A DNA stretch of 64,000 nucleotides from Planctomycetota bacterium (GCA_046290465.1 JBKAGP010000001.1:6112001-6176000); one strand, 5' to 3'; shown: positions 14,660 through 45,192, counted from the first letter of the stretch. The notes: generated from the sequence alone by a model not told the origin. A program made the numbers and translations.

Positions 14660-14775
14660 GGCCCCGACAACCAGCCGGCCCCGACAGTTGGCTCCGACAA
14701 CCATCTGGCTACCCGGCCTTGCTGGCCAACCGAGCATGCCGGCTACCAGAGGCATGCCGGCTACCAGACCATGCT
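14660..14775. repeat. Degenerate ~17-bp tandem array (7 units) ending in the stop codon of the Kelch gene
   Basis: ggccccgacaaccagcc / ggccccgacagtt / ggctccgacaaccatct / ggctacccggccttgct / ggccaaccgagcatgcc / ggctaccagaggcatgcc / ggctaccagaccatgct. Confidence 0.65.
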
Positions 14776-16170
14776 GCGCACGCCCTGCGACGTGACCAGG
14801 ATGTCGGCGCCGTTGCCGCACAGCGCCTGCGCGTAGACGTCGACGCCGTAGACCGACGGCACGTTGGGGATCGGCAACGAGAACGCCGCGGTCCTCGTCC
14901 AGCCGTTCGGCTGGGTCGGCTGCCACTGGGTGACCGCCGGCTCGACCAGCAGGTCGCACACCGCGTTGCCGACGGGGCCGAGGTTGAACGGCAGCGGAAC
15001 CCCGTTCCAGCTGCTGTTGCTGAGCCCGAACGCGAACAGCGCCCACGAGATGTTGTTGGGCACGCTGACGCTGCCCTGCCAGTCCGCGCCGCGCTCGCAG
15101 AGGCCGCCGTACAGCGTCGCCGACACCGGGAACGCCGAGCACGAACTGCCGAACCACTCGGACACGACCCCCGGCTCGAACTCCCAGTGCTGCGGGTTGA
15201 GCAGCGAGGCCGGTCCGTCGAGCGCGCCGCCGAACAGGACGACGCGTCGTCGATCCGGGTCGAACGCGGCGGCCGCGCCGATCGTCGCCGGCGGCTTCGT
15301 CGGCGTCGCCAGTTCGGTCCAGCGGTCGCCGTCGAAGCGCCACAGCTCGCCCTGCGCCGGCAGCACGCCGCCCGGGCCGCGGCCGCCGACGAGCAGCGTC
15401 GACCTGGACGCGGCGTCGTAGACGAGCCGGTGCTCGCTGCGCGGCGGCGCCGTCGCCAGGCCGTTGGCCGGCACCGCGCTGCCGACGGTCACGATGAAGC
15501 CGTCGGACAGCACCGTTCCTTGCGCGTCGACCCCGCCGTAGAGGAACAGCCGTTCGGCCGGGTTGCCGTTGTAGGTCTGGGTCGTCCAGGTGAGCCCGAT
15601 GGCCGCGTCACGCCGCGGCGGGACCGCCGACGGGAACTGGGACCAGCCGAAGTTCGGACTCCACGACCAGTAGTCGCCGAGCATGCCCTGCACCGGCGAC
15701 CAGCCGCCGATGACGATCATGCCGCCGTCCCCGTAGGCCGCCGCGCCGGCGCGGGCGATCGGCGCCGTGGAGTAGTACTGCGTCTGCCAGTCGATGCCGT
15801 CGAACCACCAGACGTCGTTGAGCGGGCTGCCCTGGCTGTCGATGCCGCCGAACACCACGACCAGGCCCTGGTAGGGCAGGTAGCACATGCTGTGCTGGCT
15901 GCGCGCCGGTGGCACGTTGGCGGTCGTGCGCTGGGTCCAGGCGCCGTTGCGGTACTCCCAGGTCTCGGCGAGGGGTTGCGGCGGCGGCCAGATCCCGTCG
16001 TCGGCCTCGAGTCCGCCGAACAGCACCAGCGCGTCGCGGTCCTCGTGGTAGGCCATCCGGGTCGCGTAGCCGGGCGTCGGCGTCGGCGTGAACACCCGGG
16101 TCCAGTCCTGGGCGGTTGCGGTGGCGGCGATCGCGAGCAGTACGAACGGGATGGCGGGCACGGTCTTCAT
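14761..16170 (-). CDS. Secreted Kelch-repeat beta-propeller protein with lineage-type C-terminal domain
   Basis: Signal peptide; repeated P.R..H.m.Y....VLFGG....TW.y.G..W blades; C-terminal LPIP..P...G...YAQ domain. Confidence 0.85.
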   Translation of the reverse strand: MKTVPAIPFVLLAIAATATAQDWTRVFTPTPTPGYATRMAYHEDRDALVLFGGLEADDGIWPPPQPLAETWEYRNGAWTQRTTANVPPARSQHSMCYLPYQGLVVVFGGIDSQGSPLNDVWWFDGIDWQTQYYSTAPIARAGAAAYGDGGMIVIGGWSPVQGMLGDYWSWSPNFGWSQFPSAVPPRRDAAIGLTWTTQTYNGNPAERLFLYGGVDAQGTVLSDGFIVTVGSAVPANGLATAPPRSEHRLVYDAASRSTLLVGGRGPGGVLPAQGELWRFDGDRWTELATPTKPPATIGAAAAFDPDRRRVVLFGGALDGPASLLNPQHWEFEPGVVSEWFGSSCSAFPVSATLYGGLCERGADWQGSVSVPNNISWALFAFGLSNSSWNGVPLPFNLGPVGNAVCDLLVEPAVTQWQPTQPNGWTRTAAFSLPIPNVPSVYGVDVYAQALCGNGADILVTSQGVRSMVW

Positions 16171-16312
16171 GGGGTTCTCCTTCGGCGTCCGAGCATACCG
16201 GTGCAGCTGCGAGCCTGCAGGCCGTGGCCGTCTTCACGCAACCCTGACAGTTCGTTGTCCGATGGGCCAGCTGCGCTGGCTAGAAGACTGGGTCCCCATC
16301 CCCGCAACCAAC

Positions 16313-17524
16313 ATGCGCTTCGCTACCGCCGCCCTCTCCGCCCTCTTCGCCGCATCCGCGCTGACCGCGCAGGTCGACACCCAGCAGGACCCCGACGAGA
16401 TCGACCTCAAGCCGTCGCCGATCCTGCCGCCGGTGGTCGACTCGCCGGCGCTGCAGCTCGCCCGCCAGGTGCAGGACGGCTTCTCCGACATCGCCGAGCA
16501 CGTCTGGCCCTCGATCGTGACCGTGCGCGCGTACCGCCGCATCGGCAAGCAGGGTGAGGCGCAGCAGGAAGGCGGCTGGGTCGCCTCGACCGAGGACACC
16601 TACCCGGGCTTCGTCGAGTTCTCGGCGCTGACCGGTTGGGTGGTCGACGAGAAGGGCGAGATCCTGACCTGCAACCACGGCCTGGTCGCCGCCGACGGCA
16701 AGGCGCCGGACCTGATCGACATCGAGACGCACGACTTCCAGCGCATCATCGTCGAGCGCGTCGGCACCGAGCCGACCGTCAACCTCGCGATCCTGCAGGC
16801 GATGGTGTGGCCCAACAGCCACCCCAAGAAGCTGCCGGCGCTGCAGTGGGGCAACAGCGACCGCCTGCGCACCGGCGCCTGGCTGCTGTGCTTCGGCGAC
16901 CCGTCGGGCCCCGAGCGCTTCCTGTCGCTCGGCACGTTCATCTCGCGGCCATCGCGCGATTGCTACCAGGACCTGCTCAGCTCGTTCTTCATGCAGGCGG
17001 GCCTGGTCGCGCACCCGCAGGCCTACGGCGGTCCGATGATCGACCTCAAGGGCCGGGTCGTCGGCATCCTCGCGCCGGGGCAGCCCGAGCCGAAGAAGTG
17101 GCAGGAGTCCAAGCGCCAGGGCGTCGAGCTCGGCCTGCCGAGCAAGATCGTGCAGGGCCTGCACGACGCGATCCGCACCGCGCGCAGCTTCCGTTCGCCG
17201 TGGCTCGGCTACGCGGTGATGAGCCGCCCGGAGATCGCCAAGGTGCGCGGCATCAAGGCCTACCAGGAGATGGACAAGCCGCGCAACGGCATCCTGATCG
17301 AGAACGTCTTCGACCCGGGCCCGGCGTTCGCCGCCGGAATCCAGCCCAACGACTGGCTGGTCACGTTCGACAAGACGCGCATCTTCACGCCCGTCGACTT
17401 CCAGAAGCAGCTCTACCTCGCCGGCATCGGCACCAAGGTCAAGGTCGAGATCTTCCGCGACGGCGCCACCAGGTGGTACGAACTCGAGATCCAGGAGCGT
17501 CCGCAGGCCGCGACGCCTCGCTAG
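16313..17524 (+). CDS. HtrA/DegP-like (S1C) trypsin fold plus PDZ protein, catalytic triad degenerate
   Basis: Signal peptide; ILTCNH, EPTVNLAIL, PQAYGGPMIDLKGRVVGI; WLG...PA..AGI...D PDZ domain. Confidence 0.85.
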   Translation: MRFATAALSALFAASALTAQVDTQQDPDEIDLKPSPILPPVVDSPALQLARQVQDGFSDIAEHVWPSIVTVRAYRRIGKQGEAQQEGGWVASTEDTYPGFVEFSALTGWVVDEKGEILTCNHGLVAADGKAPDLIDIETHDFQRIIVERVGTEPTVNLAILQAMVWPNSHPKKLPALQWGNSDRLRTGAWLLCFGDPSGPERFLSLGTFISRPSRDCYQDLLSSFFMQAGLVAHPQAYGGPMIDLKGRVVGILAPGQPEPKKWQESKRQGVELGLPSKIVQGLHDAIRTARSFRSPWLGYAVMSRPEIAKVRGIKAYQEMDKPRNGILIENVFDPGPAFAAGIQPNDWLVTFDKTRIFTPVDFQKQLYLAGIGTKVKVEIFRDGATRWYELEIQERPQAATPR

Positions 17525-17936
17525 CGGGCAAAGCCCATCCGCACGCGTACACGTCGCTTCCGTGATCCCGGTTGGCAGCGCGTCCACTGCATGGACGCGC
17601 TCCTAGCGGGCAAAGCCCGTCCGCACGCGTACACGCCGCTTCCGTGATCCCGGTTGGCAGCGCGTCCACTGCATGGACGCGCTCCTAGCGGGCAAAGCCC
17701 ATCCGCACGCGTACACGCCGCTTCCGTGATCCCGTTTGGCAGCGCGTCCACTGCATGGACGCGCTCCTAGCGGGCAAAGCCCATCCGCACGCGTACACGC
17801 CGCTTCCGTGATCCCGTTTGGCAGCGCGTCCACTGCATGGACGCGCTCCTGGCGGGCAAAGCCCATCCGCACGCGTACACGCCGCTTCCGTGATCCCGTT
17901 TGGCAGCGCGTCCACTGCATGGACGCGCTCCTGGCG
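17521..17936. repeat. Tandem array of five near-identical 82-bp units, each with a 10-bp hairpin
   Basis: Units start at 17521, 17603, 17685, 17767, 17849; AGCGCGTCCA-ctgca-TGGACGCGCT stem in each; lies between convergent genes. Confidence 0.97.
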
Positions 17937-17941
17937 TCCGG

Positions 17942-19306
<1,365 letters not shown>

Positions 19307-19308
19307 CG

Positions 19309-20451
19309 CTACTCGCCGGGCTCCACCGGCAGGTCGTGGCCGAGCTGCTTGCCGACGATCAGCAGCACCTCGGTCTGCTGCTCGAGGCTCTCGATGGCGC
19401 GCAGCATCGCCTTGCGCCCCGGGCCGCCGTCGGGGCCGAGGAACGCCTGGTCGAACGGCTTGGGGATCGCCCGCAGCGCCTTCTCGGTGCGTCGCAGCGC
19501 CGCCTCGAGCGCGTCGGCGACGTCTGGCTGGTCGCGGACCAGCTCGATCAACCCCGGGCCCTTGCTGCCGCCGACCTCGCTGCCGAGCACGACCGCCATC
19601 AGCCCGAGCTGGTTGGAGACGAAGTCCTGCCAGGTGTTGTCGCTGAAGCAGCTGTGTTCCTGCTCCTGGTCCTGGGTCTCGTAGGCGACGACCATGCGTT
19701 CGCCACCGAGCTCGAACGCCGTCAGCACGGTGACGCCGACGAGGATGCGACGCACCGACGCCTCGACCTCCTTCTCGAAGCGCACGCGGTACTTTGCGCC
19801 CGGCGCCCACTCGCGCTGCAGCTCCGAGAGATGCTGCACCAGCAGCGCGCTGACGGCGCGCAGGTACTGGCCGCGGCGCGCGGCATTCGCGGCCTTGCCG
19901 ACCACGTAGTCGGTGAACGGGCGCGCGCCGGGGCCGTCGGCCGACAGGTCCTGGCCCCACAACAGGAACTCGATCGCGTGCCAGCCGACGCAGATGTTGG
20001 CCTCGCCGCCGCGTTCGTTGGCGAGCACCAGCAGCGGGGCGGCCAGCGTCGGGAAGCGCTCCTTGTCGTTGACGATGCCGCAGTCGCGCCGGCCCTCGAC
20101 GTAGTCGACGTAGGCCTCGTCGATCGGCCACGCGTTGAGCAGCGGCTCACGCGTCTCGATCGGACCGTCGTGGAAGCGCAGCGCCTCGGTCATGCCGTAG
20201 AGCTCACGCGCGTGCAGCCACGCCTTCCTGGCGGCCGCGAGGTTCGCCGCACTCGGCTGCTCGGTCAGCTCGACGATGCGTTCGTGCATCGCGGCGGCGC
20301 GTTGCCGCACCTGGCCGTACAGCTGGTGGCTCCACGCCGCGTGGTGGCGCACGACCTCGCGCTTTTGCTGGGCGAGGTCCTGGGCGCTGAGCAGGGCCGG
20401 AAAACCGAACAAGCCGAGCGCGAGGGCCCGGCCGGGATGGCTGGCGAACAT
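19309..20451 (-). CDS. Imelysin (peptidase M75)/IrpA-family iron-regulated protein
   Basis: Signal peptide; AR.AW..AR..Y..TEA.RF..GPI, NAWP.DE, GWHAIEFLLWGQD (GxHxxE), EHSCFSDNT. Confidence 0.92.
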   Translation of the reverse strand: MFASHPGRALALGLFGFPALLSAQDLAQQKREVVRHHAAWSHQLYGQVRQRAAAMHERIVELTEQPSAANLAAARKAWLHARELYGMTEALRFHDGPIETREPLLNAWPIDEAYVDYVEGRRDCGIVNDKERFPTLAAPLLVLANERGGEANICVGWHAIEFLLWGQDLSADGPGARPFTDYVVGKAANAARRGQYLRAVSALLVQHLSELQREWAPGAKYRVRFEKEVEASVRRILVGVTVLTAFELGGERMVVAYETQDQEQEHSCFSDNTWQDFVSNQLGLMAVVLGSEVGGSKGPGLIELVRDQPDVADALEAALRRTEKALRAIPKPFDQAFLGPDGGPGRKAMLRAIESLEQQTEVLLIVGKQLGHDLPVEPGE

Positions 20452-20566
20452 GATGGGATCGGTATGTCGGATCGGGCGGGGCGCGTCCAGCGGGACGGCG
20501 CATGGCCAAAGCCCATCCGGGTGTGTGCGGGTGGTCGGCGGGCGGGGGCGGGCCCCGCCGGCCGGG

Positions 20567-20588
20567 GCTCCGGGGCGAACCCCGGAGC
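20567..20588 (-). terminator. Strong GC hairpin just after the phoX stop (terminator or mRNA stabiliser)
   Basis: GCTCCGGGG-CGAA-CCCCGGAGC, perfect 9-bp stem, UUCG loop on the minus strand; no U-tract. Confidence 0.45.
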
Positions 20589-20596
20589 GGTCGGGA

Positions 20597-22390
20597 TCAG
20601 AACTGCAGTTCGACGCCGTCCGTCAGGATCAGCGCGCCGGTCGCGTCGACGCCGATGCCCTGGACCATGACGCTCAGGCCCGACAGGCCCGGCGGCACGA
20701 TCACGGCCACGGCACCGCCGCCGAACGGCAGCGCGTACGGGAAGCCACCCGTGAAGCCGCCGATGAGCGGGAAGCTCGGGGCGAACGGGTTCAGCCACAG
20801 CGGCGGCAGGAAGGTCGACTGGCCGGCGGCCGTGTCGAACAGCTGGAACATCGCGGCGAACGGCTGGCCGTAGAGCGAGCCGTTCGGCGAGTCGACGCGG
20901 ACCGAGACGCTCTGGAACGCCTGCGGGTTGCGCACGAACTCACCCGGGCCCTTGCTCGGCACGGCGTCGACGCCGGTCTTGAGGGTCAGGTCCAGGTCGG
21001 CGCCCGGGTACGGACGCGTCTCGAACGCCCACAGCGCATCGTTGCCCGAGGCCGGGTGCTGGATGTTGCAGATCGCGCGGTACGGGTTGTTCGGGTCGAA
21101 GATCAGGCCGGTCGGCTCCGAGCCGGTGGTGGCCAGCGACGCGAAGATCGCGAGGTGCTCGGCGACGCCGTCGCCGTCGGCGTCGACGGCCTTCCAGATG
21201 TCACCGGGGGTCTCGTCCTCGAGGATGTAGATCGCGCCGTCGGGGCCGATCGTCAGGTTGTCCGGATCGTCGAAGTTGGTCTCCGTGTCCGGGCCGGGGC
21301 TGGTGAAGGGGTCCTGCTGCGTCGGGTTGACGTCGGTGCCCGTCGCCAGGTTGATCGTGTCGTAGTTGCAGAAGTCGCGGACCATGCAGGTCGTGCTGCT
21401 GATCAGCTCGATCGACAGCACGCGGTTCTCGCTGGTCAGGGCGACGTAGACGCACTCGTTGCCGTTGGCGAGGAAGCCGATGTCGAGGTCCTCCGGGCGG
21501 CCGAACGGCGTGCCGAAGACTTCGTCGGCGGCGAGCTGGCCGGCCGTGACCGTCACGTAGGTGAACGGGTTGGTCGGGGTCAGCGGCTGGTTGTTGACGT
21601 CGGTCAGCGGGACCCACGTGGCCATGCCTTCGCGGGTGGTCAGCTGGTTGGCCGCCGAGTTGAAGTTCTCGGCCGGGTTGGCGTTCGGGTCGTTGGCGTA
21701 GCCGTCGACGCTGAGCACGAACGACTGGCCCGAGCTGAGGTCGCCGTAGGTCGTCGGCACGAACTTGTAGATGCTGCCCGTGTTGCTCTCGTCGATGTAG
21801 TAGAGCGTGCCTTCCGAGTCGATGCGCATGCCTTCGTGGCGGACCGACGGGATCGAGTCGTGCCAGATGACGTTGAACGGCCCGGTCGGGTCGAGCGGGT
21901 TGGTGCACTCGAAGAAGCGACCACCGGTGGTCTCCTCACCGAAGATGATCGAGCCCCACGGGGTCCAGGTGCACGGGTCGTTGGCGACGGTCTCGTCGGT
22001 GGTGTGGTCGAACGTGTTCGGGTCCGACTGACGGTTGGCGGCACCGGCGGCGTTGCCGATGAAGATCTCGATCCAGTCACCGGTCAGCGTGTCGTAGCGG
22101 AAGATGCCGCCGCCCGCGCCGAAGTTCTCGCACGGCACGAAGATGAAGCGGCTGTCGGGGCTGAACGCGACCATGTCCCAGTTGTTGGCGGTGGCCGGCA
22201 GGCCTTGCGCCATCAGGGTGTTGCGGTCGGTGATCTTGGTCTGGGTGACGCCGGTCGGCACCAGGAACGGAGCCGTGTTCTCGTTCGACGACGTGATCGG
22301 CGCCGAGTCGGGGATCGGGTAGAAGGTGCCTTGGGCGGCCAGCGAACCGGCGGCGACGAGCACGGAGGTAGTGAGGATGATGTTGCGCAT
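20597..22390 (-). CDS. phoX: PhoX-family (DUF839) alkaline phosphatase-like protein with C-terminal accessory domain
   Basis: TPWG....GEE, RHEG, IYKFVP, RPED, PDNL, EPTG, NIQHP; Sec-type signal; start set at ATG 22390. Confidence 0.85.
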   Translation of the reverse strand: MRNIILTTSVLVAAGSLAAQGTFYPIPDSAPITSSNENTAPFLVPTGVTQTKITDRNTLMAQGLPATANNWDMVAFSPDSRFIFVPCENFGAGGGIFRYDTLTGDWIEIFIGNAAGAANRQSDPNTFDHTTDETVANDPCTWTPWGSIIFGEETTGGRFFECTNPLDPTGPFNVIWHDSIPSVRHEGMRIDSEGTLYYIDESNTGSIYKFVPTTYGDLSSGQSFVLSVDGYANDPNANPAENFNSAANQLTTREGMATWVPLTDVNNQPLTPTNPFTYVTVTAGQLAADEVFGTPFGRPEDLDIGFLANGNECVYVALTSENRVLSIELISSTTCMVRDFCNYDTINLATGTDVNPTQQDPFTSPGPDTETNFDDPDNLTIGPDGAIYILEDETPGDIWKAVDADGDGVAEHLAIFASLATTGSEPTGLIFDPNNPYRAICNIQHPASGNDALWAFETRPYPGADLDLTLKTGVDAVPSKGPGEFVRNPQAFQSVSVRVDSPNGSLYGQPFAAMFQLFDTAAGQSTFLPPLWLNPFAPSFPLIGGFTGGFPYALPFGGGAVAVIVPPGLSGLSVMVQGIGVDATGALILTDGVELQF

Positions 22391-22577
22391 TGGGTATCGG
22401 GTGGGCCGCGACCAACGCGGCCCGTTCGAGAGCACCCGACCCTAGGCAGCGGTGACAAAGTCACCGGTCCATCACGTTAAGAGTGGTGGCATGCGCGTTC
22501 CTTCACATGCGCTTGTCGCGGTGCATTGCCTCGCTGCCAATACGGCAATGCCTCGCAATGCACGTTCGTGCGCGCCG

Positions 22578-22976
22578 CTACTGGATCTTGATCTCGACGG
22601 CGTTGCTGAGGCCGAAGTAGAAGTCGAGCTGGCACAGCCCGGCGCCGAACAGCACGCCCTGGGCGTAGAACGTGAAGTCGACCAGCATCGGATCGTTCGG
22701 GATCGAGACCTGGTAGGTGACCAGCGTGATCAGGTCGAGGTCGGGCACCAGCACGCTCGAGCAGTTGGCGCCGATCGAGGTCATCGGCACGTCGGCGCGC
22801 GTGAGCCCGAGCACGACCGCGGGCAGCGGCGCGATCAGCGGGCTGATCTGCAGGGTGCTGCCGATCGTCGGCGTTCCGGAGATGAACAGCGGCGAGGTGC
22901 CGCCGCCAAGGGGCGTGATCTGGGCCGAAGCGGCGGTGGTCAACAGCAGGGCGCAGGCGAGGGTGGTCGTCTTCAT
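22578..22976 (-). CDS. Small secreted protein: signal peptide plus lineage-type C-terminal domain only
   Basis: MKTTTLACALLLTTAASA|Q...G.P.IG...LG...GANC..LVP...SIPNDP.L....FYAQ...SNAVEI; coding-like GC3 bias. Confidence 0.8.
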   Translation of the reverse strand: MKTTTLACALLLTTAASAQITPLGGGTSPLFISGTPTIGSTLQISPLIAPLPAVVLGLTRADVPMTSIGANCSSVLVPDLDLITLVTYQVSIPNDPMLVDFTFYAQGVLFGAGLCQLDFYFGLSNAVEIKIQ

Positions 22977-32393: not shown

Positions 32394-32400
32394 TCGTGTC

Positions 32401-32775: not shown

Positions 32776-32778
32776 CCC

Positions 32779-34229: not shown

Positions 34230-34260
34230 GCCGCGAGGGTAGCGTGGGCTCCGGCCCGCG

Positions 34261-37191
34261 CTACTTCTTGTCGCCGCCGCCGGCTTCGCCGCCGAGCTTG
34301 CCGGCGCCGTGCAGCTGCGTGATCGCGGCGCGCGCGGCCTTCTGCACCTCCCGGTCGTCGTCGGTGGTCCAGTCGATCAGGTAGGGAAGCGCCGCCGGCT
34401 CGCCGAGCAGCGCCAGCGAACGGATCGCCAGCAGCCGCTGCGCCTTGTCCTGATCGGGCATCGCCTGCGCGATCAGCTTGGCCGCGGCACTCGCCGGGGT
34501 CGTGTCGATGCGCCGGCTGGCGTCGCCCCAGAAGTCCTCCTGTTGGCGGATGGCGCGCAGGTCGTCCAGCGTGTTCTTCGCGTACTTGCGCACGTACGTG
34601 TCGTCGTCGCGCAGCAGCGGCAGCAGGTAGGCAGCGGCGCGCGAACCGAGCGCGCGCACCAGGGCCTGTGCGGCGCCGCTGCGCGTGCCCGATCGATCGT
34701 CGGCCAGCAGCGCTGCGACCTGCGTCTCGAGCTCGACGACGCGCGCGTCGGGCATCGCCTTCAGCGTCGAGTAGGTGTTCTCCTGGAGCAGCAGCAGCCA
34801 CAGGTCGCGATCGAATTCGAGGCGCTGCATCAGGCGCTCGATGTTGCCGATCCGCGGGTTGGCGCGAAGCGCCCGTTTGCCCGCCTCGGCGTAGCGGCGC
34901 GCGACCTCGGCGGGCAGCTGCGAGAGGACGCCCAGCCAGAGCCGGGCGTCGGAGGTCGAAGCCAGCCGCGAGACGCAGCTCTCGAGTCGCGGGTGGCGCT
35001 GCAGTTCTTCGGCATCGAGCGCGCGGAATGACGTCACCAGCGTGTAGCGGTTCTCGGGCTGGTCCTTCGGCCGCTCGGTGCTGTTGGCCAACAGCAGCGT
35101 GGTCAGCGCCGGCAGGCCGGCGGTGGGCACCCTCGCGCCGTCGCCGCCGTTGCCGTGCAGCAGGTCGAACCACACCTTGTCGGCGTGCGGGCCGGCGACC
35201 AGCGCCTGCCACAGGCGGACCTGCGCGTCGAACGGGTAGCCGACCTCGCCGGTGCAGAGGTAGTCGATGCGGCGCGTGCCGCGATTGGTGCGGGCGCCGC
35301 CGCGGTTGGCCCGGGTGGTCGCCGTGCCCTGCACGGTCGACGCCGAATCGCTCCAGTCGATGTCGTAGTGCGCGGCCAGCAGCGGGATCGCTGCCTCGTC
35401 GCCGGCGCGCACCAGCTCCTGGAACAGCCTGTCGGCGGTGTTGCCGTCGAGCTTCGCGTGGAAGCGTTCGAGCAGGTCGCGCAGTTGGTCACGCGCTGCG
35501 GCGTGATCCTGCTGCGACAGCTCGACCAGCACGCCGATGCAGTGCGGCAGCAGCTGAGGGCGCGCCGCCGCGATCGCACCGATCCACGGCGCGGCGCGGT
35601 CGGGCGCGGCCACACCGCCGAGACGCAGCAGCTCGAGCACTTCCGGGCGCCAGTGGATGCGGCCGTCGTGCAGCGTGCCGCGCCACGACACCGACGGGTC
35701 CTCGAAGCACTGCTGCACGGCCGCCCGGCAGGCCTCGAACCACGACGGATGCGGTTCGCGCTGGCGCAGCACGTTGAGCGCCTGACGGGGATCCCGCTGT
35801 TCGGGCAACGAACGGATCACGCGTGCCGCCTGCGCCGGGCTCGCCTGCCGGTAGATGTCCTCGAGCCAGCTCGTCTGCTTCTGGAAGTAGCCGAGCTCGA
35901 CCAGCGTGACGACGTCGTCGCGCGCGGCGTCGGTCCACGCCACCTGCATGCGGTCGAGCATGCCGGACAGCCCGGCCGCCGGACCGACCGGTGGCGACTG
36001 TGGCTCCCGTCGCGGCAGACGTCCGAGTTGGCTCGCCGTCTGCGCGGCCCGGTGGATCCAGGCATCGTCGGCCTCGACCCGGAACTCGTTGCCAGGACCG
36101 CCCGGGAAGTAGAAGTTGAAGTTGGCCGGCAGCGTGGTCGCGACCTCGAAGAACAGCTCGGTGCCGCCTTGCGGCCCGAATGCGAGCAGGGTCATCAGCA
36201 GGGTCTGTGCCGCCGTCCGCTGCGACGCGACCGGCGACGCCAGCGCGGCCCGGATGCGCTGGTGGTGCATCGAGAAGAACACCTCGCGTTCGACCTCGGA
36301 GTAGCGCTGCCAGTTGTTGGTGGCGGCGTTCATGGCGAGCGCCCGGGCGTCGGCGTTCTCGTTGCCGGCCAGCGCCAGCACGTCCTGCGGGCCGAGGTCG
36401 TGCGCGACCCGACGAAGGTTGCGCCAGGTCTCGCCGGTCGGATCGTTGCTGCGGGCGAACGCCGCGAACACGTCGGCCATGCCCTTGCCGCGCGCCGACG
36501 CGTTGGCCGACGCGAACCGCACCAGCGGCAGCGGCCCGGACGCGGCGGTCTTCAGCAGGAACGCGCGCGCCGGCTCGCCGCCGATCGACCACAGCAACTC
36601 GTAGAAGTACGACAGCTTCGGCGACAGGTTGCGCAGCCGCCAGTCCTCGCGCGCGATCGAGTCGTCGACGGCGAGCTGCCGGGCGACGACGCGCGCGGCC
36701 GGGTCGCCGAGCCACAGCACCTCGGTGCGCAGCGCCTGCAGGCGGCGTTCGTCCTCGCGCGACAGCTTCTGGTCGTTGGCGTAGCGCGACAGGATCTCGG
36801 CCATCCGGATCACCAGCGCCTCGGCCTTCTGTTCGCGCTCGCGGTCCTGCTGGCGGTCCTGGTTGCCGCTCTCGAGCAGCGCCTTGGCCTGCTCGGCGCG
36901 CTCGCCGCCGGACCTGGTGGCGCGCTCGAGCAGCGGCCGGGCCTCGTCGCGGCGGTCGAGCGTCCACAGCAGACGGCCGAGCCGCAGCGCGGTGTCCTCG
37001 TGCACGTCCTTGGCGCGCGCGTCGGCGAGCAGGCCGCGGTAGAGCTGCTCGGCGTGGTCGAGGCGGCCCTCGGAGGTCTCGACGACGGCGGCGTAGTCGA
37101 GCCGTTCCTTGGGCGTGGCTTCCCGGATCTGGCAGGGGATCGACGCGGCCAGGGCGGCCAGCGTCAGCGACGTTCGTAGGAGTTCCTTCAT
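34261..37191 (-). CDS. Large secreted TPR/HEAT-repeat alpha-solenoid protein
   Basis: Signal peptide; N-terminal TPR-like helices; C-terminal HEAT repeats (LL.DD...VR..A, LG...A.P.L......D.D.EV..AA). Confidence 0.8.
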   Translation of the reverse strand: MKELLRTSLTLAALAASIPCQIREATPKERLDYAAVVETSEGRLDHAEQLYRGLLADARAKDVHEDTALRLGRLLWTLDRRDEARPLLERATRSGGERAEQAKALLESGNQDRQQDREREQKAEALVIRMAEILSRYANDQKLSREDERRLQALRTEVLWLGDPAARVVARQLAVDDSIAREDWRLRNLSPKLSYFYELLWSIGGEPARAFLLKTAASGPLPLVRFASANASARGKGMADVFAAFARSNDPTGETWRNLRRVAHDLGPQDVLALAGNENADARALAMNAATNNWQRYSEVEREVFFSMHHQRIRAALASPVASQRTAAQTLLMTLLAFGPQGGTELFFEVATTLPANFNFYFPGGPGNEFRVEADDAWIHRAAQTASQLGRLPRREPQSPPVGPAAGLSGMLDRMQVAWTDAARDDVVTLVELGYFQKQTSWLEDIYRQASPAQAARVIRSLPEQRDPRQALNVLRQREPHPSWFEACRAAVQQCFEDPSVSWRGTLHDGRIHWRPEVLELLRLGGVAAPDRAAPWIGAIAAARPQLLPHCIGVLVELSQQDHAAARDQLRDLLERFHAKLDGNTADRLFQELVRAGDEAAIPLLAAHYDIDWSDSASTVQGTATTRANRGGARTNRGTRRIDYLCTGEVGYPFDAQVRLWQALVAGPHADKVWFDLLHGNGGDGARVPTAGLPALTTLLLANSTERPKDQPENRYTLVTSFRALDAEELQRHPRLESCVSRLASTSDARLWLGVLSQLPAEVARRYAEAGKRALRANPRIGNIERLMQRLEFDRDLWLLLLQENTYSTLKAMPDARVVELETQVAALLADDRSGTRSGAAQALVRALGSRAAAYLLPLLRDDDTYVRKYAKNTLDDLRAIRQQEDFWGDASRRIDTTPASAAAKLIAQAMPDQDKAQRLLAIRSLALLGEPAALPYLIDWTTDDDREVQKAARAAITQLHGAGKLGGEAGGGDKK

Positions 37192-37285
37192 GCCGGTAAC
37201 AGACGGGATCGGTCGTTCGGACTTGTCGCGGGTGCGCGGATTCGATGTCGCCCAGATGTCAAGGTCGGCCGGATGTCGCGGTCGC

Positions 37286-37355
37286 CCAGGTCACGATCGA
37301 CCAGGTCACGATCGACCCGGTCACGATCGACCCGGTCACGATCGACCCGGTGACG
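37286..37355. repeat. 15-bp tandem repeat x4.6 (CC[A/C]GGTCACGATCGA) containing the response regulator stop
   Basis: Units at 37286, 37301, 37316, 37331, partial 37346; TGA stop at 37336-37338 is in unit 4. Confidence 0.92.
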
Positions 37356-38067
37356 TGGCGGCGGGGCCGCCGTCGGCGTCGGGCACCAGCCGGTAGCCGA
37401 CGCCGTGCACGGTGACCAGGTGCCTGGGCTTCTTCGGGTCGTTCTCGAGCTTCTTGCGAAGGTGCAGCAGGTGGGTGTCGATGGTGCGGTCGCCGATCGT
37501 CGCGCCGTTCCAGACCTCGTCGAGGAACATCGTGCGGTCGACCACGCGGCCGCGCTCGCGCCACAGCAGTTCGAGCATCGCGGCCTCGGTCGGCGACAGC
37601 CGGTGGCTGTGGCCGGCGCGGGTCAGCTCGTAGGCGGCCAGATCGACGGCGACGTCGCCGAACGCAAACCGGCCGCTCATCTGCTCGCTCGGCGCATCGG
37701 CCTCGCGGCGCCGCAGCAGCGCCTTGATGCGGGCGCGCAGTTCGCGCAGCCCGAACGGCTTGGTTACGTAGTCGTCGGCGCCGAGCTCGAGGCCGAGCAC
37801 CTTGTCGGCCTCGCTGCTGCGCGCGGTCAGCAGCAGGATCGGCGTGCGGCGGTCGTGCTCGCGCACCGAGCGCAGGATCTCGAGGCCGCTCGGGCCGGGC
37901 AGCATCACGTCGAGGATCAGCAGGTCGAACCGGCGCTCCCTCAGGATCGCCAGCGCCTCGTCGCCGTCCTGCGCGACGGTCGCGCTGTGGCCGTCGTGCT
38001 GCAGCGCATCGTGCAGCACGGTGCGGATCGACGCGTCGTCTTCTACGAACAGGACCTCGAAGGTCAT
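37336..38067 (-). CDS. OmpR/PhoB-family response regulator
   Basis: VEDD, LDVMLP, LTA, GADDYVTKPF, winged helix with RTIDTH...LRKKLE.DP...TV.GVGY. Confidence 0.96.
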   Translation of the reverse strand: MTFEVLFVEDDASIRTVLHDALQHDGHSATVAQDGDEALAILRERRFDLLILDVMLPGPSGLEILRSVREHDRRTPILLLTARSSEADKVLGLELGADDYVTKPFGLRELRARIKALLRRREADAPSEQMSGRFAFGDVAVDLAAYELTRAGHSHRLSPTEAAMLELLWRERGRVVDRTMFLDEVWNGATIGDRTIDTHLLHLRKKLENDPKKPRHLVTVHGVGYRLVPDADGGPAATSPGRS

Positions 38068-39932
38068 CGTTGCGGCTCCTCGGTCATGGTCTGGGAGGTG
38101 CTGGTGATGGGCAGTACCAGGTCGAACGCGCAGCCGTCGCCGTCGTCGGGCGCGTTGCAGGTCAGCGTGCCGCCGTGGTGGCTGACGATCGCGCGCGACA
38201 GGAACAGGCCGAGGCCGACGCCGGCGATCGCGCCGCTCTGGTGCGCCGTGCCGCGGCGGAATCGCTCGAAGATCCGTTCGCGCTCGGGGCCGGGCACGCC
38301 CGGGCCGTGGTCGCGCACGCGCACCGTGAAGCGGCCGTCGCCGCCGAACGTGTGCACGTCGACGCGGCGACCGCCGCTCGCGTACTTGCGCGCGTTCTCG
38401 AGCAGGTTGAGCAGTGTCTGGGTGATCGCGCCGCGGTCGAGCCGCGCCGGCGCCGCCGCCGCGCCCTCGTGCAGCGTGACCGTCAGGCCGTGCCGTTCGC
38501 CGAGCGGCGCGTAGGTGCGCACGGCCTCGCGCACGACGTCGGCGGCGTCGTCGTCGCGCAGGTCGTAGGCGCGCTCGCCGCGCTCGAGCTGGCCGAGGTC
38601 GAGCACGTTGTCGATCAGCGCCGACAGCCGCGCGGTCTCGCCGGCCATCATCGCGAAGTAGTCGCGCTGGCGTTCGGGCCGCACCTCGTCGTCGTGCAGC
38701 ACGTCGGCGATCAGGCGCAACGACGCGACCGGCGTCTTCAGCTCGTGGGTCACGCCGGACAAGAACTCGGTGCGCGCGCGCATCGCCGCGTTCTCGCGCC
38801 GCAGCGCGCGCATCGTCGCCCAGACGCTGCCGCCGAACAGCAGCAGCAGCAGCGCGCCGAGCGACCAGACCGCGGCCGGCCGCGCATACCACGGCAGCGC
38901 CGGCACCGGGGGCGGTGCGATCCAGGCCAGCGGCGACAGCACGGTGGCGGCGGCGGCGCTCGGCTCGAAGCGCAGCGCGCCGCGCGCCGGCACCGGCGGC
39001 AGTTCGAGCGGGTTGGGCGTGCGCGTGCCGAGGCCGTGCAGCTGCTGCAGGAACGCGCGCGGCAGCAGCGCCCCGCGGCCCGCGCCGTCGCCGCCCGGAA
39101 ACCACAGCGCGACCTGGCCGTCGAACGCCTGCGCGTGCCGCAGGCCGTCCGGTTCGCGCAGCAGGCGGTTGGCGCGCCGCAGCAGCGCGCGTCGCTCGGT
39201 GCGCGCGGCGTGGTCCGTCTCGATCGCGGCGACGTCGTGGCCGTGCTCGTGCAGGCGACGCAGCGTCGTCGTCGCGACCCGGCGCGGCAGCGCAGCCAGC
39301 TGCCCGGCCCGTTCGGCGAGCGCGAACCGGCCGCGCTCGGCCTGCAGCAGGCACAGCGCCGCGAACGCGTCGGCGACGTCGCGTTCGCCGAACGCCGCCG
39401 GCGGCAGCTTCGCGAGGTATCGCTGCAGGTCCGCCAGCAGCGCCTCGCAGCGCGCGTCGTCCCCGCGGCGGTGCGCCTGCCAGGCGGCGGCGCCGAGCAC
39501 CGGCCAGCTGCGGCGGGCGCCGCCGTCGAGGCGCCGCAGCACCGCGTCCATGCGCTGCGCGGCGGCGATCTGCTCGCCGTCGTTGAACTCGAGCCGCTGC
39601 ACCTCGACCAGCCGTTCGCGCGTCAGCGAGTCGAGCGGCACGCCGTCGGTCTCGAGCAGCCAGCCGATCCGATCGGCGACCACGACCTCGCCGTCGCGCA
39701 CCTCGAACCGCTGCTCGACCGGGCACAGTTCGAGCACCGCCGGCTGCGCCAGCACCGCACGCATCGCCAGCGCGGTGTCGCGGGCGTCCCGTTCGGCGGC
39801 CCAGACGGCGCGTTCGTGCGCCTCGCTGGTGGCCTGCACCAGGCCCCAGCCGGCGAACGCGACCAGCGCGGTGCCGGACGCGAGCGCGAGCAGCAGCAGC
39901 AGCGGACGGGCGGTGTGGCGGCGGCGGGCGAT
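38064..39932 (-). CDS. Membrane sensor histidine kinase (start uncertain: ATC 39932 or GTG 39839)
   Basis: THELKTP H-box, NLLENA.KY, VRDHGPG, IFERF.RG, GLGL; in-frame TM helix lies upstream of the first canonical start. Confidence 0.92.
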   Translation of the reverse strand: MARRRHTARPLLLLLALASGTALVAFAGWGLVQATSEAHERAVWAAERDARDTALAMRAVLAQPAVLELCPVEQRFEVRDGEVVVADRIGWLLETDGVPLDSLTRERLVEVQRLEFNDGEQIAAAQRMDAVLRRLDGGARRSWPVLGAAAWQAHRRGDDARCEALLADLQRYLAKLPPAAFGERDVADAFAALCLLQAERGRFALAERAGQLAALPRRVATTTLRRLHEHGHDVAAIETDHAARTERRALLRRANRLLREPDGLRHAQAFDGQVALWFPGGDGAGRGALLPRAFLQQLHGLGTRTPNPLELPPVPARGALRFEPSAAAATVLSPLAWIAPPPVPALPWYARPAAVWSLGALLLLLFGGSVWATMRALRRENAAMRARTEFLSGVTHELKTPVASLRLIADVLHDDEVRPERQRDYFAMMAGETARLSALIDNVLDLGQLERGERAYDLRDDDAADVVREAVRTYAPLGERHGLTVTLHEGAAAAPARLDRGAITQTLLNLLENARKYASGGRRVDVHTFGGDGRFTVRVRDHGPGVPGPERERIFERFRRGTAHQSGAIAGVGLGLFLSRAIVSHHGGTLTCNAPDDGDGCAFDLVLPITSTSQTMTEEPQR

Positions 39933-39982
39933 GGCAGCACGCTAACGGGCCCGGTCGCGGAGTTGTCAACGAGATGTCGCGG

Positions 39983-40372
39983 TCAGCGCAGCAGCACGTC
40001 GTAGACCTGCAGCCGCGCCACGTGCGGGCCCAGCAGTTCGTCGACGGCCTGCCGGTGCAGCGGATGGTCGGCGTAGGCCTCCAGCGCCGGCAGGTCTTCG
40101 AAGTTCATCACGAACGCGGCGTGGTAGTCGTTGTCGATCGCGGGGTGGTCGAGCAGCGGCTGGCCGAACGAGACCCGGGTCAGCCCGGGGATCCGGCCGA
40201 CGAAGCCGCGGCCGGTGCGCTCGATCCGTTCGAGCACGTCGCGGTCGTCCGGGTCCTTCAGCCACATCAACACGACGTGGTCGACCTGGCCGGCCTCGGA
40301 GTCGGTGGTCTGGCAGCCCGTCAGCAGCGTCGCAGCCAGCATCACGGCCAGCATCACATTACGGCAGCGCAT
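39983..40372 (-). CDS. Dabb (stress-responsive A/B barrel) family lipoprotein
   Basis: Lipobox LTGC; HVVL.WLK...IPG.......F.D...L.AY..HP.H; TGATG coupling to the upstream gene. Confidence 0.85.
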   Translation of the reverse strand: MRCRNVMLAVMLAATLLTGCQTTDSEAGQVDHVVLMWLKDPDDRDVLERIERTGRGFVGRIPGLTRVSFGQPLLDHPAIDNDYHAAFVMNFEDLPALEAYADHPLHRQAVDELLGPHVARLQVYDVLLR

Positions 40373-42471
40373 CACGGCAGCGTCTCCCACAAGAACGTCC
40401 ACGAGAGCGCCGCCATGAACGCGGCCTGCTTGTTGTCGGCGGCGCCGCCGTGGCCGCCCTCGATGTTCTCGTAGTAGAGCACGTCGTGGCCCTGCGCCAT
40501 CATGCGCGCCATCATCTTGCGCGCGTGGCCGGGGTGCACGCGGTCGTCGCGCGTCGACGTCGTGAACAGCACCTTCGGGTACTTCGTGTCCTTGTCGACG
40601 TTGTGGTACGGCGAGTAGCGCCGCAGCCACTCGGCCTCTTCGGGCACGTCGGGATCGCCGTACTCGCCCATCCACGAGGCCCCGGCGAGCAGCTTGTGGT
40701 AGCGCAGCATGTCGAGCAACGGCACCTGGCAGACGACCGACCGGAACAGGTCGGGGTACATCACGGTCATGTTGCCCATCAACAGCCCGCCGTTGCTGCC
40801 GCCCTGGATGCCGAGGTGGCGCGGCGACGTGATCTGCGCGTCGATCAGGTCCTCTGCGACCGCGGCGAAGTCCTGGTAGCACTTGTCGCGGTTGGCCTTC
40901 AAAGCCGCCTGGTGCCAGCGCGGGCCGAACTCGCCGCCGCCGCGGATGTTGGCGACCGCGTAGACGCCGCCGCGTTCGAGCCAGCTGGCGCCGACCGTCG
41001 CGCTGTAGCCCGGCGTCAGCGAGACCTCGAAGCCGCCGTAGCCGTACAGCAGCGTCGGGTTGCTGCCGTCGCGCGCGGCGTCGTCCTTCATCACCAGGAA
41101 GTAGGGCACGCGCGTGCCGTCCTTCGACGTCGCCTCGCGCTGCTCGACGACCAGGCCCGCGGTGTCGAAGAACGCCGGCAGGCTCTTCAGCTTCTGCGGA
41201 GCGCCCTTGCCGATCGTGCCGCGCCACAGGCTGGTCGGCGTCAGGTAGTCGGTCACCGTCAGCCAGTAGTCGTCGCCCTGCTCGTCGTCGACCGGCGACG
41301 CCGAGATCGTGCCGAACTCCGGCAGACCCGGCAGCTTCTCGAGCCGCCAGCCGTCGTCGCCGTGGGTGGCCGCGTAGACGACGTTGCGCACGTTGTCGAG
41401 CACGTTGACCAGCAGGTGGTTCCTGGTGCCCGACCAGCCGCTCAAAGAGCTGCGTTCGGTCGGTGCGAACAGCACGTCGAACCGGCGCTTGCCGGCCAGG
41501 AAGTCGTCGAACCGGGTCACCAGCAGCGAGCCGGCCGCGTAGCGTTCGCCGCCGACCTGCCAGTCCTCGCGCAGCTCCAGCAACAGCCACTCGCGGTGCA
41601 CGGACGCGTTGGCGCTGTCCTGCTTGTCGAGCTTGACGATCTGGTCGCCGCTGACGAAGAACATCTCGTTGGTGTAGAACGTGACGCCGCGGTAGAGGAA
41701 GTCGCGTTCGAAGCCGACGGTCGGGTCGCGGTAGGCGTAGAAGAACACGTCGCTGGCCTCGCCCTGCTCGAGCGTGACGGCGTCCGCGATCGGCGTGCCG
41801 CGCTTCCAGACCTTGGCGACGCGCGGGTAGCCGGACTCGGTCATCGAGCCCTCGCCGAAGTCGGTGCCGACGTAGAGCGTGTCGCGGTCCTTCCAGGCGA
41901 CCTGCGTCTTGGCCTCCGGCAGTTCGAAGCCGCCGGCGACGAACTGCTTCTTCACCGGGTCGAACTCGCGCACGACGGTCGCGTCGGCGCCGCCGCGCGA
42001 CAGGCTCAACAGGCACCGCGAGCGATCCGGCAGCAGCCAGCTCGAGCCCTTCCAGACCCAGTTCTCACCCTCCTCCTTGCCGAGCGCGTCGAGGTCGAGC
42101 ACGACCTCCCATTCGGGTTCGTCCTGCTGGTACGACTCCCAGCTGGTCCGCCGCCACAGGCCGCGCGGGTTGTTCGCGTCCTGCCAGAGGTTGTAGTAGT
42201 GCTCCCCGCGCTTGGCGACGTAGGCGATGCGATCGTCGGAGTCGAGGATCGACAGAATGCGCTGCTGCAGTTCGCCGAAGCGCTTGCCGCCGGTCAGGGC
42301 CTGCTGGCTCTCCTTGTTGCGCGCGCGCACCCAGTCGAGCGGCTCGTCGCCGCCGACGTCTTCCAGCCAGAGAAACGGATCGTTCGCAGCTTCGTTCGGC
42401 ATCGGGTCCTGTGCAGTCGTGGCCAGCGTCGTGCAGACAATGGCGGCCAGCGTCGGTAGTCGGTGGTTCAT
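40372..42471 (-). CDS. Secreted prolyl oligopeptidase (S9A)
   Basis: DP..WLED, SKDGT.VPY, YGYGGF, N.RGGGEFG..WH, GGSNGG (Ser), DDRVHP (Asp), GGHG (His). Confidence 0.96.
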   Translation of the reverse strand: MNHRLPTLAAIVCTTLATTAQDPMPNEAANDPFLWLEDVGGDEPLDWVRARNKESQQALTGGKRFGELQQRILSILDSDDRIAYVAKRGEHYYNLWQDANNPRGLWRRTSWESYQQDEPEWEVVLDLDALGKEEGENWVWKGSSWLLPDRSRCLLSLSRGGADATVVREFDPVKKQFVAGGFELPEAKTQVAWKDRDTLYVGTDFGEGSMTESGYPRVAKVWKRGTPIADAVTLEQGEASDVFFYAYRDPTVGFERDFLYRGVTFYTNEMFFVSGDQIVKLDKQDSANASVHREWLLLELREDWQVGGERYAAGSLLVTRFDDFLAGKRRFDVLFAPTERSSLSGWSGTRNHLLVNVLDNVRNVVYAATHGDDGWRLEKLPGLPEFGTISASPVDDEQGDDYWLTVTDYLTPTSLWRGTIGKGAPQKLKSLPAFFDTAGLVVEQREATSKDGTRVPYFLVMKDDAARDGSNPTLLYGYGGFEVSLTPGYSATVGASWLERGGVYAVANIRGGGEFGPRWHQAALKANRDKCYQDFAAVAEDLIDAQITSPRHLGIQGGSNGGLLMGNMTVMYPDLFRSVVCQVPLLDMLRYHKLLAGASWMGEYGDPDVPEEAEWLRRYSPYHNVDKDTKYPKVLFTTSTRDDRVHPGHARKMMARMMAQGHDVLYYENIEGGHGGAADNKQAAFMAALSWTFLWETLP

Positions 42472-42639
42472 CGGTGGGCGTGAGCCTCGGGTGCAGGATG
42501 CGCCTGCACAGGTCTCTGCGACCTGCGGGCGGAGTCCAGGTTTACCGGCTGCGCGGCGCGTTCGCGCCAGAAGGCGCAAAAGCCCGGGCGGATGCCGCGC
42601 CGCGCGCAACCCGATCACAGCACGGCTGCACCGCTCCGA

Positions 42640-45192
42640 TCAGAACATCCCGATCGTGTGCTGCAGGCGGTTGCCGGCGCTGAGTCCGGTCAGCGCGCCC
42701 GCGGTCAGCTCGACGCCGACGACCTGCTGGTAGAGCGCCGAGCCGAGCAGCGCGGCGCTCGCCGGGATCGGCAGCGACAGCTGCGCGCGGCCCTGGCTGT
42801 GCCCCGCGACCTGCACGAAGTCGGGCGTCACCCACAGCGTGCACGCCGACAGCGGCAGCGGCTGCACGGTCGGCGACAGGCCGAGCACGTCGAGCGCGAG
42901 GCCGCCGGTCGGCAGCCCCTCGGCGACGCTGCGCAGCTCGCCGCCGAGGAACGCGCCCTGCTCGGCGCGCAGCACGTTCGGGCCGCCGCTGCCGACGCAG
43001 TTGGGGCCGAAGCTCTGGCCGGTCGCCGGGCAGTCCGTCCGCACGCGCGTGAAGTGGACGGCGACGAGGCCGTCGTGCTCGACGAAGCGGCCGGCGACGT
43101 GGAGTTCGCCGCGGCGCGTGAACTGCAGGTCGAGCACGGTGCCCGGGGTGCCGTCGGCCGCGCCGACCCCGCCGGCGAGCTGGCTCCAGCCGGTGCCGTC
43201 GAAGCGCGCCAGGCTGCGCGCCGCGACGCCGCCGATCGCGTCGAACTCGCCGCCGACGACCAGGTCGCCGTCCGGCAGCACCGCGATCGTGTGTAGCACG
43301 CCGGCCGTCGGCGCCGGCAGCGATTGCCAGCTGCTGCCGTCGAAGCTGGCGACGAACGGCTGGGCGGTGGTCGTGCCGCAGACGAACAGCACGCCGTCGC
43401 GCCGCACCACGCAGTCGCTGACGACGTGGCCCGTGCCCGCGACCGCGCTGGTCAGCCCGGCGCCGAGCGGCAGCCACGCCTGGCCGTTCCAGCGCATCAC
43501 GCCCGGCTGGCCGCCGCCCGGGATCGACTGCAGCGCGCCGCCGGCGACGAGGTCGCCGCCGGGCAATTCGGCGAGCGTTGCGAACTGTCCGGACAGGCCG
43601 CTCTGCTGCGTGCTGAGCAACGTCCAGCCGGTGGGGCCGTGGCGGAACAGGCCGTTGCCGCCGGCATACACGGTGCCGTCCTCGAGCTCCACCACGCAGC
43701 TCGCGCCGCCGAGGAACGGGGTGTTGCCGAAGCCCGACCAGGTCGCGCCGTCGAAGCGCATGACGTCACCGTTCGGGCCGACGACGAACGAGCCGGCGAT
43801 CAGCACCGAGCCGTCGGCGGCGGGCTCGATCGCGCGCACCTCGGGCAAGAACGGCGCGCCCTGCAGCACCGGCCCGTTGGCCGTCGACTGCGGCAGCCAG
43901 GTGCCGCCGACGCCGCGCACCAACCCCGGCGAGTAGTTGCGTTCGACCCGGTAGAACGAGCCGCCGAGCAGCAGGTCGCCGTTGGGCAGCGCGGTCGAAG
44001 CCTGCACCGGCGCGTCGATGCCGCCGCCCATCGGGTCCGCCTGCCAGCTGCCGACCACCGCGACGCCGTTGCACGGCTCCCCGCTGACGGCCTCGAACGG
44101 GCCGGCGAGCGCGAACGCCGTCGGCGTGTTCTGGCCCGGGCGCGGGTCGATCGACAGCGACAGGCGTGACGGCGTGAACGTCGCCGCGGTCGCCAGCGGG
44201 GCATAGAGCGCCGTCCAGCCGGCCAGCGGCTCCCACAGCGCCACGCCGGCCTGCTGGCCGAACGCGTCGAAGTCGCCCACGGCCATCAGGGCCTCGCCCT
44301 GGAAGCCCGTGGTGATGCCGAGCGCGCCGATCCACGGCCCCGCGGGGAACGAGTTGCTCGGCCCCAGTCCTGGCAGGTCGCTCCAGGTGCTGCCGTCCCA
44401 TCGGCGCACGGCCGGCAGCGTGGGGGCGGCGGCGAACACGTCGCCGCCCGACATCACCGCGATCGACGCGACCGGCTGCGCGACGCCGGCACCGAGCGCC
44501 GACCAGCCGGAGCTGCTCCAGCGCGCGAGGTTCTGTGCCGGGGTCGAGCCGGCGGTCGCGAACGCGCCGCCGGCCAGCAGGTCGCCGTTGGCGTCGATGC
44601 AGATGGACTGCACCAACGGGTCCGGGCCACCGGCCACGCCGCCGCCCAGTCCGACCCACTGCGAGCCGTTCCAGCGGGCGAGGCGCGCGGTCGGCTGTCC
44701 GGCACAGGCCGTGAAGCGTCCGCCGGCGACCGGGTCGCCGTTGGCGAGGGTGCCGACGACGAGCGGTTCGGCGTCGAAGTCGCCGCCGAGCACCGTCCAC
44801 ACGCTGCCGTTCCAGCGCGCGACCCGATGCACGGCCGCTGCACCTTGCCCGAGCGAGCCCGCGACCAGCAGCGTGTTGTTGCCATCGACGGCGGCCGCGC
44901 GCACATGGTCGAACGGGCCTGCGGGCAGGGTCGTCCAGCTCCGGGTGGCTGGGTCGTACAGCGCCGCGCCGGCGCACGGGGTCGCCTCGACGTATGCGAA
45001 CGCGCCGCCGACGAAGACGAGCATCGGAGCCGGCCCGGCGCCATCGGAGTCCCAGTAGCGCACGACGTCCGGACGTGCGGACGGGCCGCGGTGGGCGAAC
45101 GCGGGCGTCGCGACCAGCCCGCACTGGGCGGACACGAGTGCGGTGGACAGCGACAGGCCGATGGCCGCGAGGATCGGATGGGTGGGGTTCAT
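42640..45192 (-). CDS. Secreted multi-blade beta-propeller protein with lineage-type C-terminal domain
   Basis: Signal peptide; ~14 repeats of G.L.AGG.F...G......ARW.G..W..LG.G; C-terminal FG..C...LPIP....L.G..LYQQ domain. Confidence 0.88.
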   Translation of the reverse strand: MNPTHPILAAIGLSLSTALVSAQCGLVATPAFAHRGPSARPDVVRYWDSDGAGPAPMLVFVGGAFAYVEATPCAGAALYDPATRSWTTLPAGPFDHVRAAAVDGNNTLLVAGSLGQGAAAVHRVARWNGSVWTVLGGDFDAEPLVVGTLANGDPVAGGRFTACAGQPTARLARWNGSQWVGLGGGVAGGPDPLVQSICIDANGDLLAGGAFATAGSTPAQNLARWSSSGWSALGAGVAQPVASIAVMSGGDVFAAAPTLPAVRRWDGSTWSDLPGLGPSNSFPAGPWIGALGITTGFQGEALMAVGDFDAFGQQAGVALWEPLAGWTALYAPLATAATFTPSRLSLSIDPRPGQNTPTAFALAGPFEAVSGEPCNGVAVVGSWQADPMGGGIDAPVQASTALPNGDLLLGGSFYRVERNYSPGLVRGVGGTWLPQSTANGPVLQGAPFLPEVRAIEPAADGSVLIAGSFVVGPNGDVMRFDGATWSGFGNTPFLGGASCVVELEDGTVYAGGNGLFRHGPTGWTLLSTQQSGLSGQFATLAELPGGDLVAGGALQSIPGGGQPGVMRWNGQAWLPLGAGLTSAVAGTGHVVSDCVVRRDGVLFVCGTTTAQPFVASFDGSSWQSLPAPTAGVLHTIAVLPDGDLVVGGEFDAIGGVAARSLARFDGTGWSQLAGGVGAADGTPGTVLDLQFTRRGELHVAGRFVEHDGLVAVHFTRVRTDCPATGQSFGPNCVGSGGPNVLRAEQGAFLGGELRSVAEGLPTGGLALDVLGLSPTVQPLPLSACTLWVTPDFVQVAGHSQGRAQLSLPIPASAALLGSALYQQVVGVELTAGALTGLSAGNRLQHTIGMF

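Follow-up and report, generated by a model that had tools for sequence, protein, structure and literature searches.

Why should unrelated secreted proteins of one bacterium end in the same folded domain? The question is raised by a 64,000-nt stretch of a Planctomycetota genome, here called the window (G000:C1:6112001-6176000; genome G000 is a single contig of 6.59 Mb, 94% complete, with 65-74% GC), in which an earlier note had singled out four signal-peptide proteins with similar C-terminal modules. We found that these modules belong to one domain family of about 135 residues that is absent from the catalogues searched and is carried by about 5% of the genome's predicted genes. With a probability of roughly one half, the domain serves as a folded tether, keeping exported proteins attached to the cell envelope (most likely at its outer surface) instead of a lipid anchor; an envelope tether is likely because the domain takes the place of lipid anchors and known sorting tails in related proteins. 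The four open reading frames and the motifs quoted for them are present in the sequence as the note had stated (aa, amino acids; Ig, immunoglobulin; FnIII, fibronectin type III; pLDDT, predicted local distance difference test):

14761..16170, minus strand: Kelch-repeat secreted protein, 469 aa (PF24681 and other Kelch families; signal peptide about 16111-16170, by eye)
14761..15204, minus strand: tail domain of the Kelch protein, two-cysteine subtype A (profile E 3.5e-21; modelled as an Ig/FnIII-like sandwich, pLDDT 91.5)
20597..22390, minus strand: PhoX-family phosphatase, 597 aa (PF05787; signal peptide about 22334-22390)
20597..21013, minus strand: PhoX tail, divergent, cysteine-free, subtype C (its start coincides with the end of the catalytic domain in tail-free homologues)
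22578..22976, minus strand: stand-alone copy, 132 aa, signal peptide (about 22923-22976) and tail domain only (profile E 7.5e-15)
42640..45192, minus strand: beta-propeller secreted protein, 850 aa (PF12768, PF17164; signal peptide about 45127-45192)
42640..43065, minus strand: tail domain of the propeller protein, subtype A (profile E 1.1e-22)

A tail family common to the four proteins

All four window proteins carry a common C-terminal tail family. Compared pairwise, the four tails fail to find one another; iterated profiles started from either the Kelch or the propeller tail by itself converge on 172 open reading frames of G000, and both recover the Kelch, small-protein and propeller tails. 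A profile search at E<0.01 gave 209 matches and none among reversed decoys, with 182 of the 209 ending within 4 residues of the stop. Cysteine-free subtype B, which aligns to subtype A by HHalign at 80% (E 1.4e-5), adds 12 genes. The PhoX tail, which the note had counted as a more divergent member, does belong, as a third subtype: its profile aligns to the main alignment at 85% (E 6e-6), and the main profile directly matches 20 of the 120 PhoX homologues listed. Together the subtypes account for 234 of 4,825 genes (4.8%) in a gene set predicted within this analysis, whose starts are often placed too far downstream, with the best decoy at E 2.8; the count is a lower bound because several more divergent tails are visible by eye. 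A family of this size was found by the profile count that the note had proposed, whereas strict C-terminal position does not hold: 213 of the 234 copies (~91%) are C-terminal and 21 are not. The expected signal peptides are there, judged like the lipoboxes below by simple patterns of our own rather than by SignalP: 187 of the 234 fit a signal-peptide-plus-Q pattern, and in most of the others a leader can be recognised by eye. Q after the signal peptide is not tail-specific, because 551 of 3,122 other proteins fit the pattern too. At the sequence level neither Pfam, NCBIfam nor PDB holds a match. No description of the domain was found in the accessible parts of the literature, including 10.1101/817700, 10.64898/2026.10.26.761892, PMC11131199 and PMC12419801, with supplements and most subscription papers lying outside the search.

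The predicted fold, modelled on the Kelch tail, is an all-beta Ig/FnIII-like sandwich carrying a 30-residue insertion and a cysteine pair. With a grand average of hydropathy (GRAVY) of +0.42 and only 2% lysine plus arginine (K+R), the domain indeed has neither transmembrane helix nor basic tail. Members are ~27% identical per column, and the conserved cysteines co-vary (n=149; both present in 101, neither in 26, one only in 22). Much of the hydrophobicity resides in strands 54-60 and 122-131, on both faces of the model. A near-invariant Gln was considered as a cross-linking site and set aside, as the cysteine-free subtypes retain it and the insertion probably hides the strand face on which it lies. 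Twelve proteins of <200 aa bear the domain, about half of them consisting of signal peptide and domain only, and these, together with the hydropathy, the scarcity of charge and a last strand that finishes at the stop codon, would suit a self-assembling subunit that co-polymerises its passengers into an S-layer-like or amphipathic coat, with the stand-alone copies as filler. We consider such a coat improbable, since ~27% identity is low for a shared lattice and no single conserved major subunit was identified.

Placement, passengers and what the domain replaces

The domain is a module of signal-peptide proteins, found mostly at the extreme C-terminus and sometimes right behind the signal peptide. 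Among the 21 non-C-terminal copies of G000, 8 are N-terminal, 9 are followed by a short extension (~25-45 residues), 2 are internal and 2 are probable read-throughs; the distant genome G177 has 3 N-terminal copies among 22 matches. The nine proteins with an extension are 300-390 aa long (G000 1574876, 303090, 3264950, 3869823, 6592983, 468966, 4614759, 4707972 and 3776803), and their domain is perhaps inserted into a host domain. What seemed to be a kinase-tail fusion at G000 3775494 was rejected because it resembles a gene remnant.

Passengers that lie behind N-terminal or internal copies have eight tail-free paralogues in G000, and by eye seven of these carry a lipobox. In two swap pairs, 96842 versus 214750 (49% identity over 410 aa) and 6211652 versus 1960310 (49% over 575 aa, the alignment opening directly after the domain), the match begins at the first post-domain residue; for three of the eight N-terminal-tail proteins there is no tail-free paralogue. 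A strict lipobox pattern of our own occurs in 0 of 234 tail proteins and in 19 of 143 tail-free proteins of similarly low K+R, genes that are not independent of one another. Seven large, mostly low-charge G000 proteins (1763608, 1960310, 1963075, 1967342, 1994057, 2521255 and 1998181), most with a lipobox by eye, share a glycine-rich region and a beta-rich C-terminal module, and a similar module ends two of the N-terminal-tail proteins.

At the C-terminus the same slot can be followed in PhoX, where the tail begins at the end of the catalytic domain. We found 558 homologues, and among the 120 listed, 80 have the full tail (60 of them scored only by a profile from 9 such tails), 26 stop at the catalytic boundary, 1 ends in a dockerin, 3 in another module of ~90 residues and 4 are fragments or frameshifts. 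The remaining 6 are PEP-CTERM-like by eye, 2 scoring over the curated TIGR02595 cut-off, 1 being VPLPA-like below it and 3 having no match. Fifteen homologues (P0228, P0229, P0238, P0277 and others) stop exactly at the catalytic boundary, mostly on a terminal proline, where PEP-CTERM or tail would start. On homologous passengers, then, the domain alternates with lipoprotein N-termini, PEP-CTERM tails and a dockerin. Judged from sequence, it has two features of a non-covalent surface-anchoring module, namely portability across passengers and protein ends and alternation with other anchors.

The 196 passengers of G000 fall into 94 clusters and have a median K+R of 4.5%, against 12.3% in other signal-peptide proteins. 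Among non-membrane proteins the tail is found on 107 of 145 with <4% K+R, 84 of 147 at 4-6%, 21 of 148 at 6-8%, 3 of 502 at 8-10% and 0 of 2,538 above 10%, in classes whose K+R includes the tail residues themselves. Families among the 29 tail proteins scanned in G177 include CBM2, M10, M14, FG-GAP, SBBP and TIG, and the passengers also include a protease of the matrixin type, an adhesin-like protein 2,300 residues long and numerous propellers. From their low K+R and their families, the passengers look extracellular. Three enzymes exist both as a tailed low-charge copy and as a tail-free high-charge copy, which suggests two destinations. Docking inside the periplasm, on peptidoglycan or on the inner face of the outer membrane, would accommodate passengers with periplasmic relatives (di-haem peroxidases, multicopper oxidase, amidase, GSDH) and one weak copy (E 1e-3) whose protein seems to be anchored in the membrane by an uncleaved N-terminus, and lipoproteins too can face the periplasm. 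We give it little credence, given the CBM2, matrixin-type, adhesin-like and propeller passengers, a composition unlike that of other signal-peptide proteins and a slot held in common with PEP-CTERM and dockerin.

The same data bear on a stronger competitor, which treats the domain as a signal for export across the outer membrane, read by type II secretion or an unrecognised translocon: an analogue of the C-terminal domain of type IX secretion system (T9SS) cargo without T9SS genes, that may then stay on as an anchor. Somewhat unlikely in our estimate, it is still strong because C-terminal placement is tight (182 of 209 copies within 4 residues of the stop, and 146 of the best 150 public matches within 5) and because the low-charge class is almost fully marked, as if the tail defined the whole exported class. 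The three enzyme pairs, a predicted Ig-like fold that may resemble that of T9SS tails and a presence that is nearly all-or-none by family would also fit, whereas N-terminal, internal and stand-alone copies do not. On balance a tether is better supported than a T9SS-like export signal, and one domain could play both roles.

If the domain is a tether, the passenger would be exported by Sec and the two conserved cysteines would form a disulphide in the periplasm, after which the folded protein would cross the outer membrane, most simply through one of the type II secretion systems, since T9SS genes were not found. The nearly uncharged domain would then bind an envelope component non-covalently, for example an outer-membrane lipid, a surface glycan or a scaffold protein, and remain uncleaved. 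Several points weigh against a surface tether. The 91% C-terminal placement, with the last strand mostly at the stop codon, is equally expected of a C-terminal export signal. The swap with lipoproteins comes from a few passenger families of one genome with lipoboxes called by eye, one paralogue (G000 453968) has neither tail nor lipobox, and a looser lipobox pattern flags 15 of 212 tail proteins, at most 2 of which look real by eye. In the lipoprotein paralogues its place is taken by a lipobox together with a 115-700-residue stalk; the domain could thus substitute for a spacer or an export signal rather than for an anchor. In the model, the 30-residue insertion may shield the hydrophobic faces of strands 54-60 and 122-131, which would then not be turned towards a membrane; surface location is suggested by composition and passenger type only; and a partial screen turned up no ligand, scaffold or machine.

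Export machinery and spread among genomes

PorV (PF19572) had no match in G000, while the positive control matched in Bacteroides thetaiotaomicron; SprA, GldM and PorU/C25 had none in G000 or in five-genome sets, searches in which no control genome matched either. GspD/E/F and pseudopilin genes are present in both G000 and G177, type IV pilus genes also occur, and a GspE-like gene stands near the cut-off score in 5 of 5 genomes. We compared G000 with G177, a distant tail-bearing genome (86% complete), over 2.31 of ~2.36 Mb (contigs 1-20). Of 998 reciprocal best matches, 182 pass a hydrophobic N-terminus filter; 72 of these were scanned against Pfam, 17 had no family at 1e-6, and one of the 17 was profiled across genomes. 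Another of the 17 looks LptD-like from its neighbouring genes. When 56 barrel-like or large envelope candidates were compared, the strong matches in G177 comprised only a porin, a TonB-receptor-like protein (the label is our own reading), a PilM-like protein and two partial domain matches. No unexplained barrel common to the two genomes was found among the 56, which counts against an export signal, in a partial screen blind to divergent barrels and to genes missing or cut at the ends of the stretches compared. The cognate beta-barrel or protease that the note had proposed to look for was thus not found in this screen, nor was any other dedicated partner (scaffold or ligand), and the sole profiled candidate failed.

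The leading candidate, a giant pseudopilin (~1,700 aa) encoded in a conserved pilin locus, was rejected as a specific partner: 35 of the 36 genomes with tail expansion have it, but so do 4 of the 6 with a single hit and 15 of the 38 that are tail-negative, a distribution that speaks against the export signal as well. A broader tail profile gave no match in the same 38, and G105, with at least 90 tails, has no giant-pseudopilin match. The conserved pilin locus (G000 C1 863-881 kb; G177 L075; L192) combines PilM-like genes with a 1,700-aa pilin-leader protein lacking a Pfam match; 54 of 80 Planctomycetota genomes have its C-terminal part, in open frames mostly of 1,300-2,300 aa.

In public data 27,144 clusters at 50% identity match the domain at E<=0.001, and in the best 150 of these matches it lies within 5 residues of the end in 146 and is N-terminal in 3. 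Among 301 Planctomycetota genomes 61 have a match (G000, 54 with at least 3 scored matches and 6 with one), with presence nearly all-or-none per family. Two PhoX proteins named Engelhardtia mirabilis bear the tail. Close homologues of the window's proteins carry Planctomycetota labels. A preprint gives ~70% GC for the 'Saltatorellus' clade (10.64898/2026.10.26.761892), to which we infer that G000 belongs. Dockerin expansion (at least 12 matches) affects 5 of the 44 genomes that lack tail expansion and none of the 36 that have it, small numbers from related genomes. L208, a 2.5-kb contig titled Luminiphilus sp. with 70% GC and two tail genes resembling those of G000, is probably a mis-binned planctomycete contig. 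In L215 and L216 (G220 and G187, without tail expansion) the degenerate tail of a peroxidase-like protein precedes an additional module of ~310 aa; as an expanded tag, the extra C-terminal module of two family-f57 genomes was rejected, with only 2 and 1 matches.

Tentatively, and short of an even chance, several uncultured Planctomycetota classes, with E. mirabilis as a cultured representative, would display up to ~5% of their gene products on the surface by an undescribed anchoring route, the Ig-like domain serving from either end as an address that replaces lipidation and is read by a receptor or machine unrelated to T9SS, sortases and cohesins. At least 27,000 protein clusters form this family without a catalogue entry, and a single profile would be enough to predict which proteins, hydrolases and adhesins included, entire uncultured classes of planctomycetes display at the surface. 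Should it be a tether or export address, the domain would add a new envelope-targeting route to a phylum in which little is understood of envelope biology, and the idea is directly testable because two PhoX proteins of cultured E. mirabilis carry the tail.

Elsewhere in the window, 211-14538 (plus strand) is occupied by an ordinary ribosomal protein operon (S10, spc, alpha), secY and rpoA among its genes. Downstream of phoX (17942-22390, minus strand) lie genes that we take to be imelysin-like (19309-20451) and then di-haem oxidoreductase-like (17942-19306), with a possible iron-supply link to PhoX. Between a serine-protease-like gene and the di-haem-like gene, a tandem array at 17512-17936 comprises ~5 units of 82 nt, 94-96% identical and with an internal palindrome, resembling repetitive extragenic palindromic elements; related sequence occurs near 16180-16280 and at G000 2388149. 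An RNA-library contig (X1) spans most of phoX and part of its tail; it may derive from DNA, both runs contributed only a small share, and it was not used as evidence.

Comparison with known systems

A close likeness is to the T9SS C-terminal domain of Bacteroidota (Por_Secre_tail, TIGR04183). T9SS tails have an Ig-like fold, as the planctomycete domain is predicted to have, and in both systems the domain sits C-terminally on hundreds of diverse signal-peptide proteins with similar passengers, SBBP/DUF7948, FG-GAP, M14 and Golvesin being T9SS-linked families. The planctomycete domain differs in being longer, with its 30-residue insertion and cysteine pair, in occurring N-terminally too (8 of the 21 copies not at a C-terminus), and in having no sequence match: Pfam and NCBIfam hits at E<=0.1 for 63 members and the four window proteins include no T9SS tail family. 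PorV, SprA and GldM were not found in the genomes searched, the last two without a responding control. Of what the note had proposed, a lineage-specific targeting or attachment module on diverse signal-peptide proteins is supported (234 genes, 94 passenger clusters, 61 of 301 genomes, the PhoX slot and the exclusion of lipoboxes), and the T9SS-like part is weak.

Dockerins (type I, PF00404; GC-type, NF041540) are likewise portable on diverse exoproteins, expanded in other Planctomycetota and, on one PhoX homologue, in the same slot. They are small helical calcium-binding domains, whereas the domain described here is all-beta in the model and unrelated in sequence, none of the 63 members matching either family. 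PEP-CTERM tails of the exosortase system (TIGR02595) hold the same slot on PhoX homologues and share with LPXTG/sortase a many-to-one tag logic; in contrast to both, the planctomycete domain is a folded unit of ~135 residues with no transmembrane helix, basic tail or NCBIfam match, and no processing enzyme was found. Lipoprotein anchoring through a lipobox and signal peptidase II alternates with the domain on paralogous passengers, but the leaders of the tail proteins are of the signal-peptidase-I type and lack a strict lipobox. The domain fails the tested features of T9SS cargo, PEP-CTERM and dockerin, yet it works like that class of portable tags.

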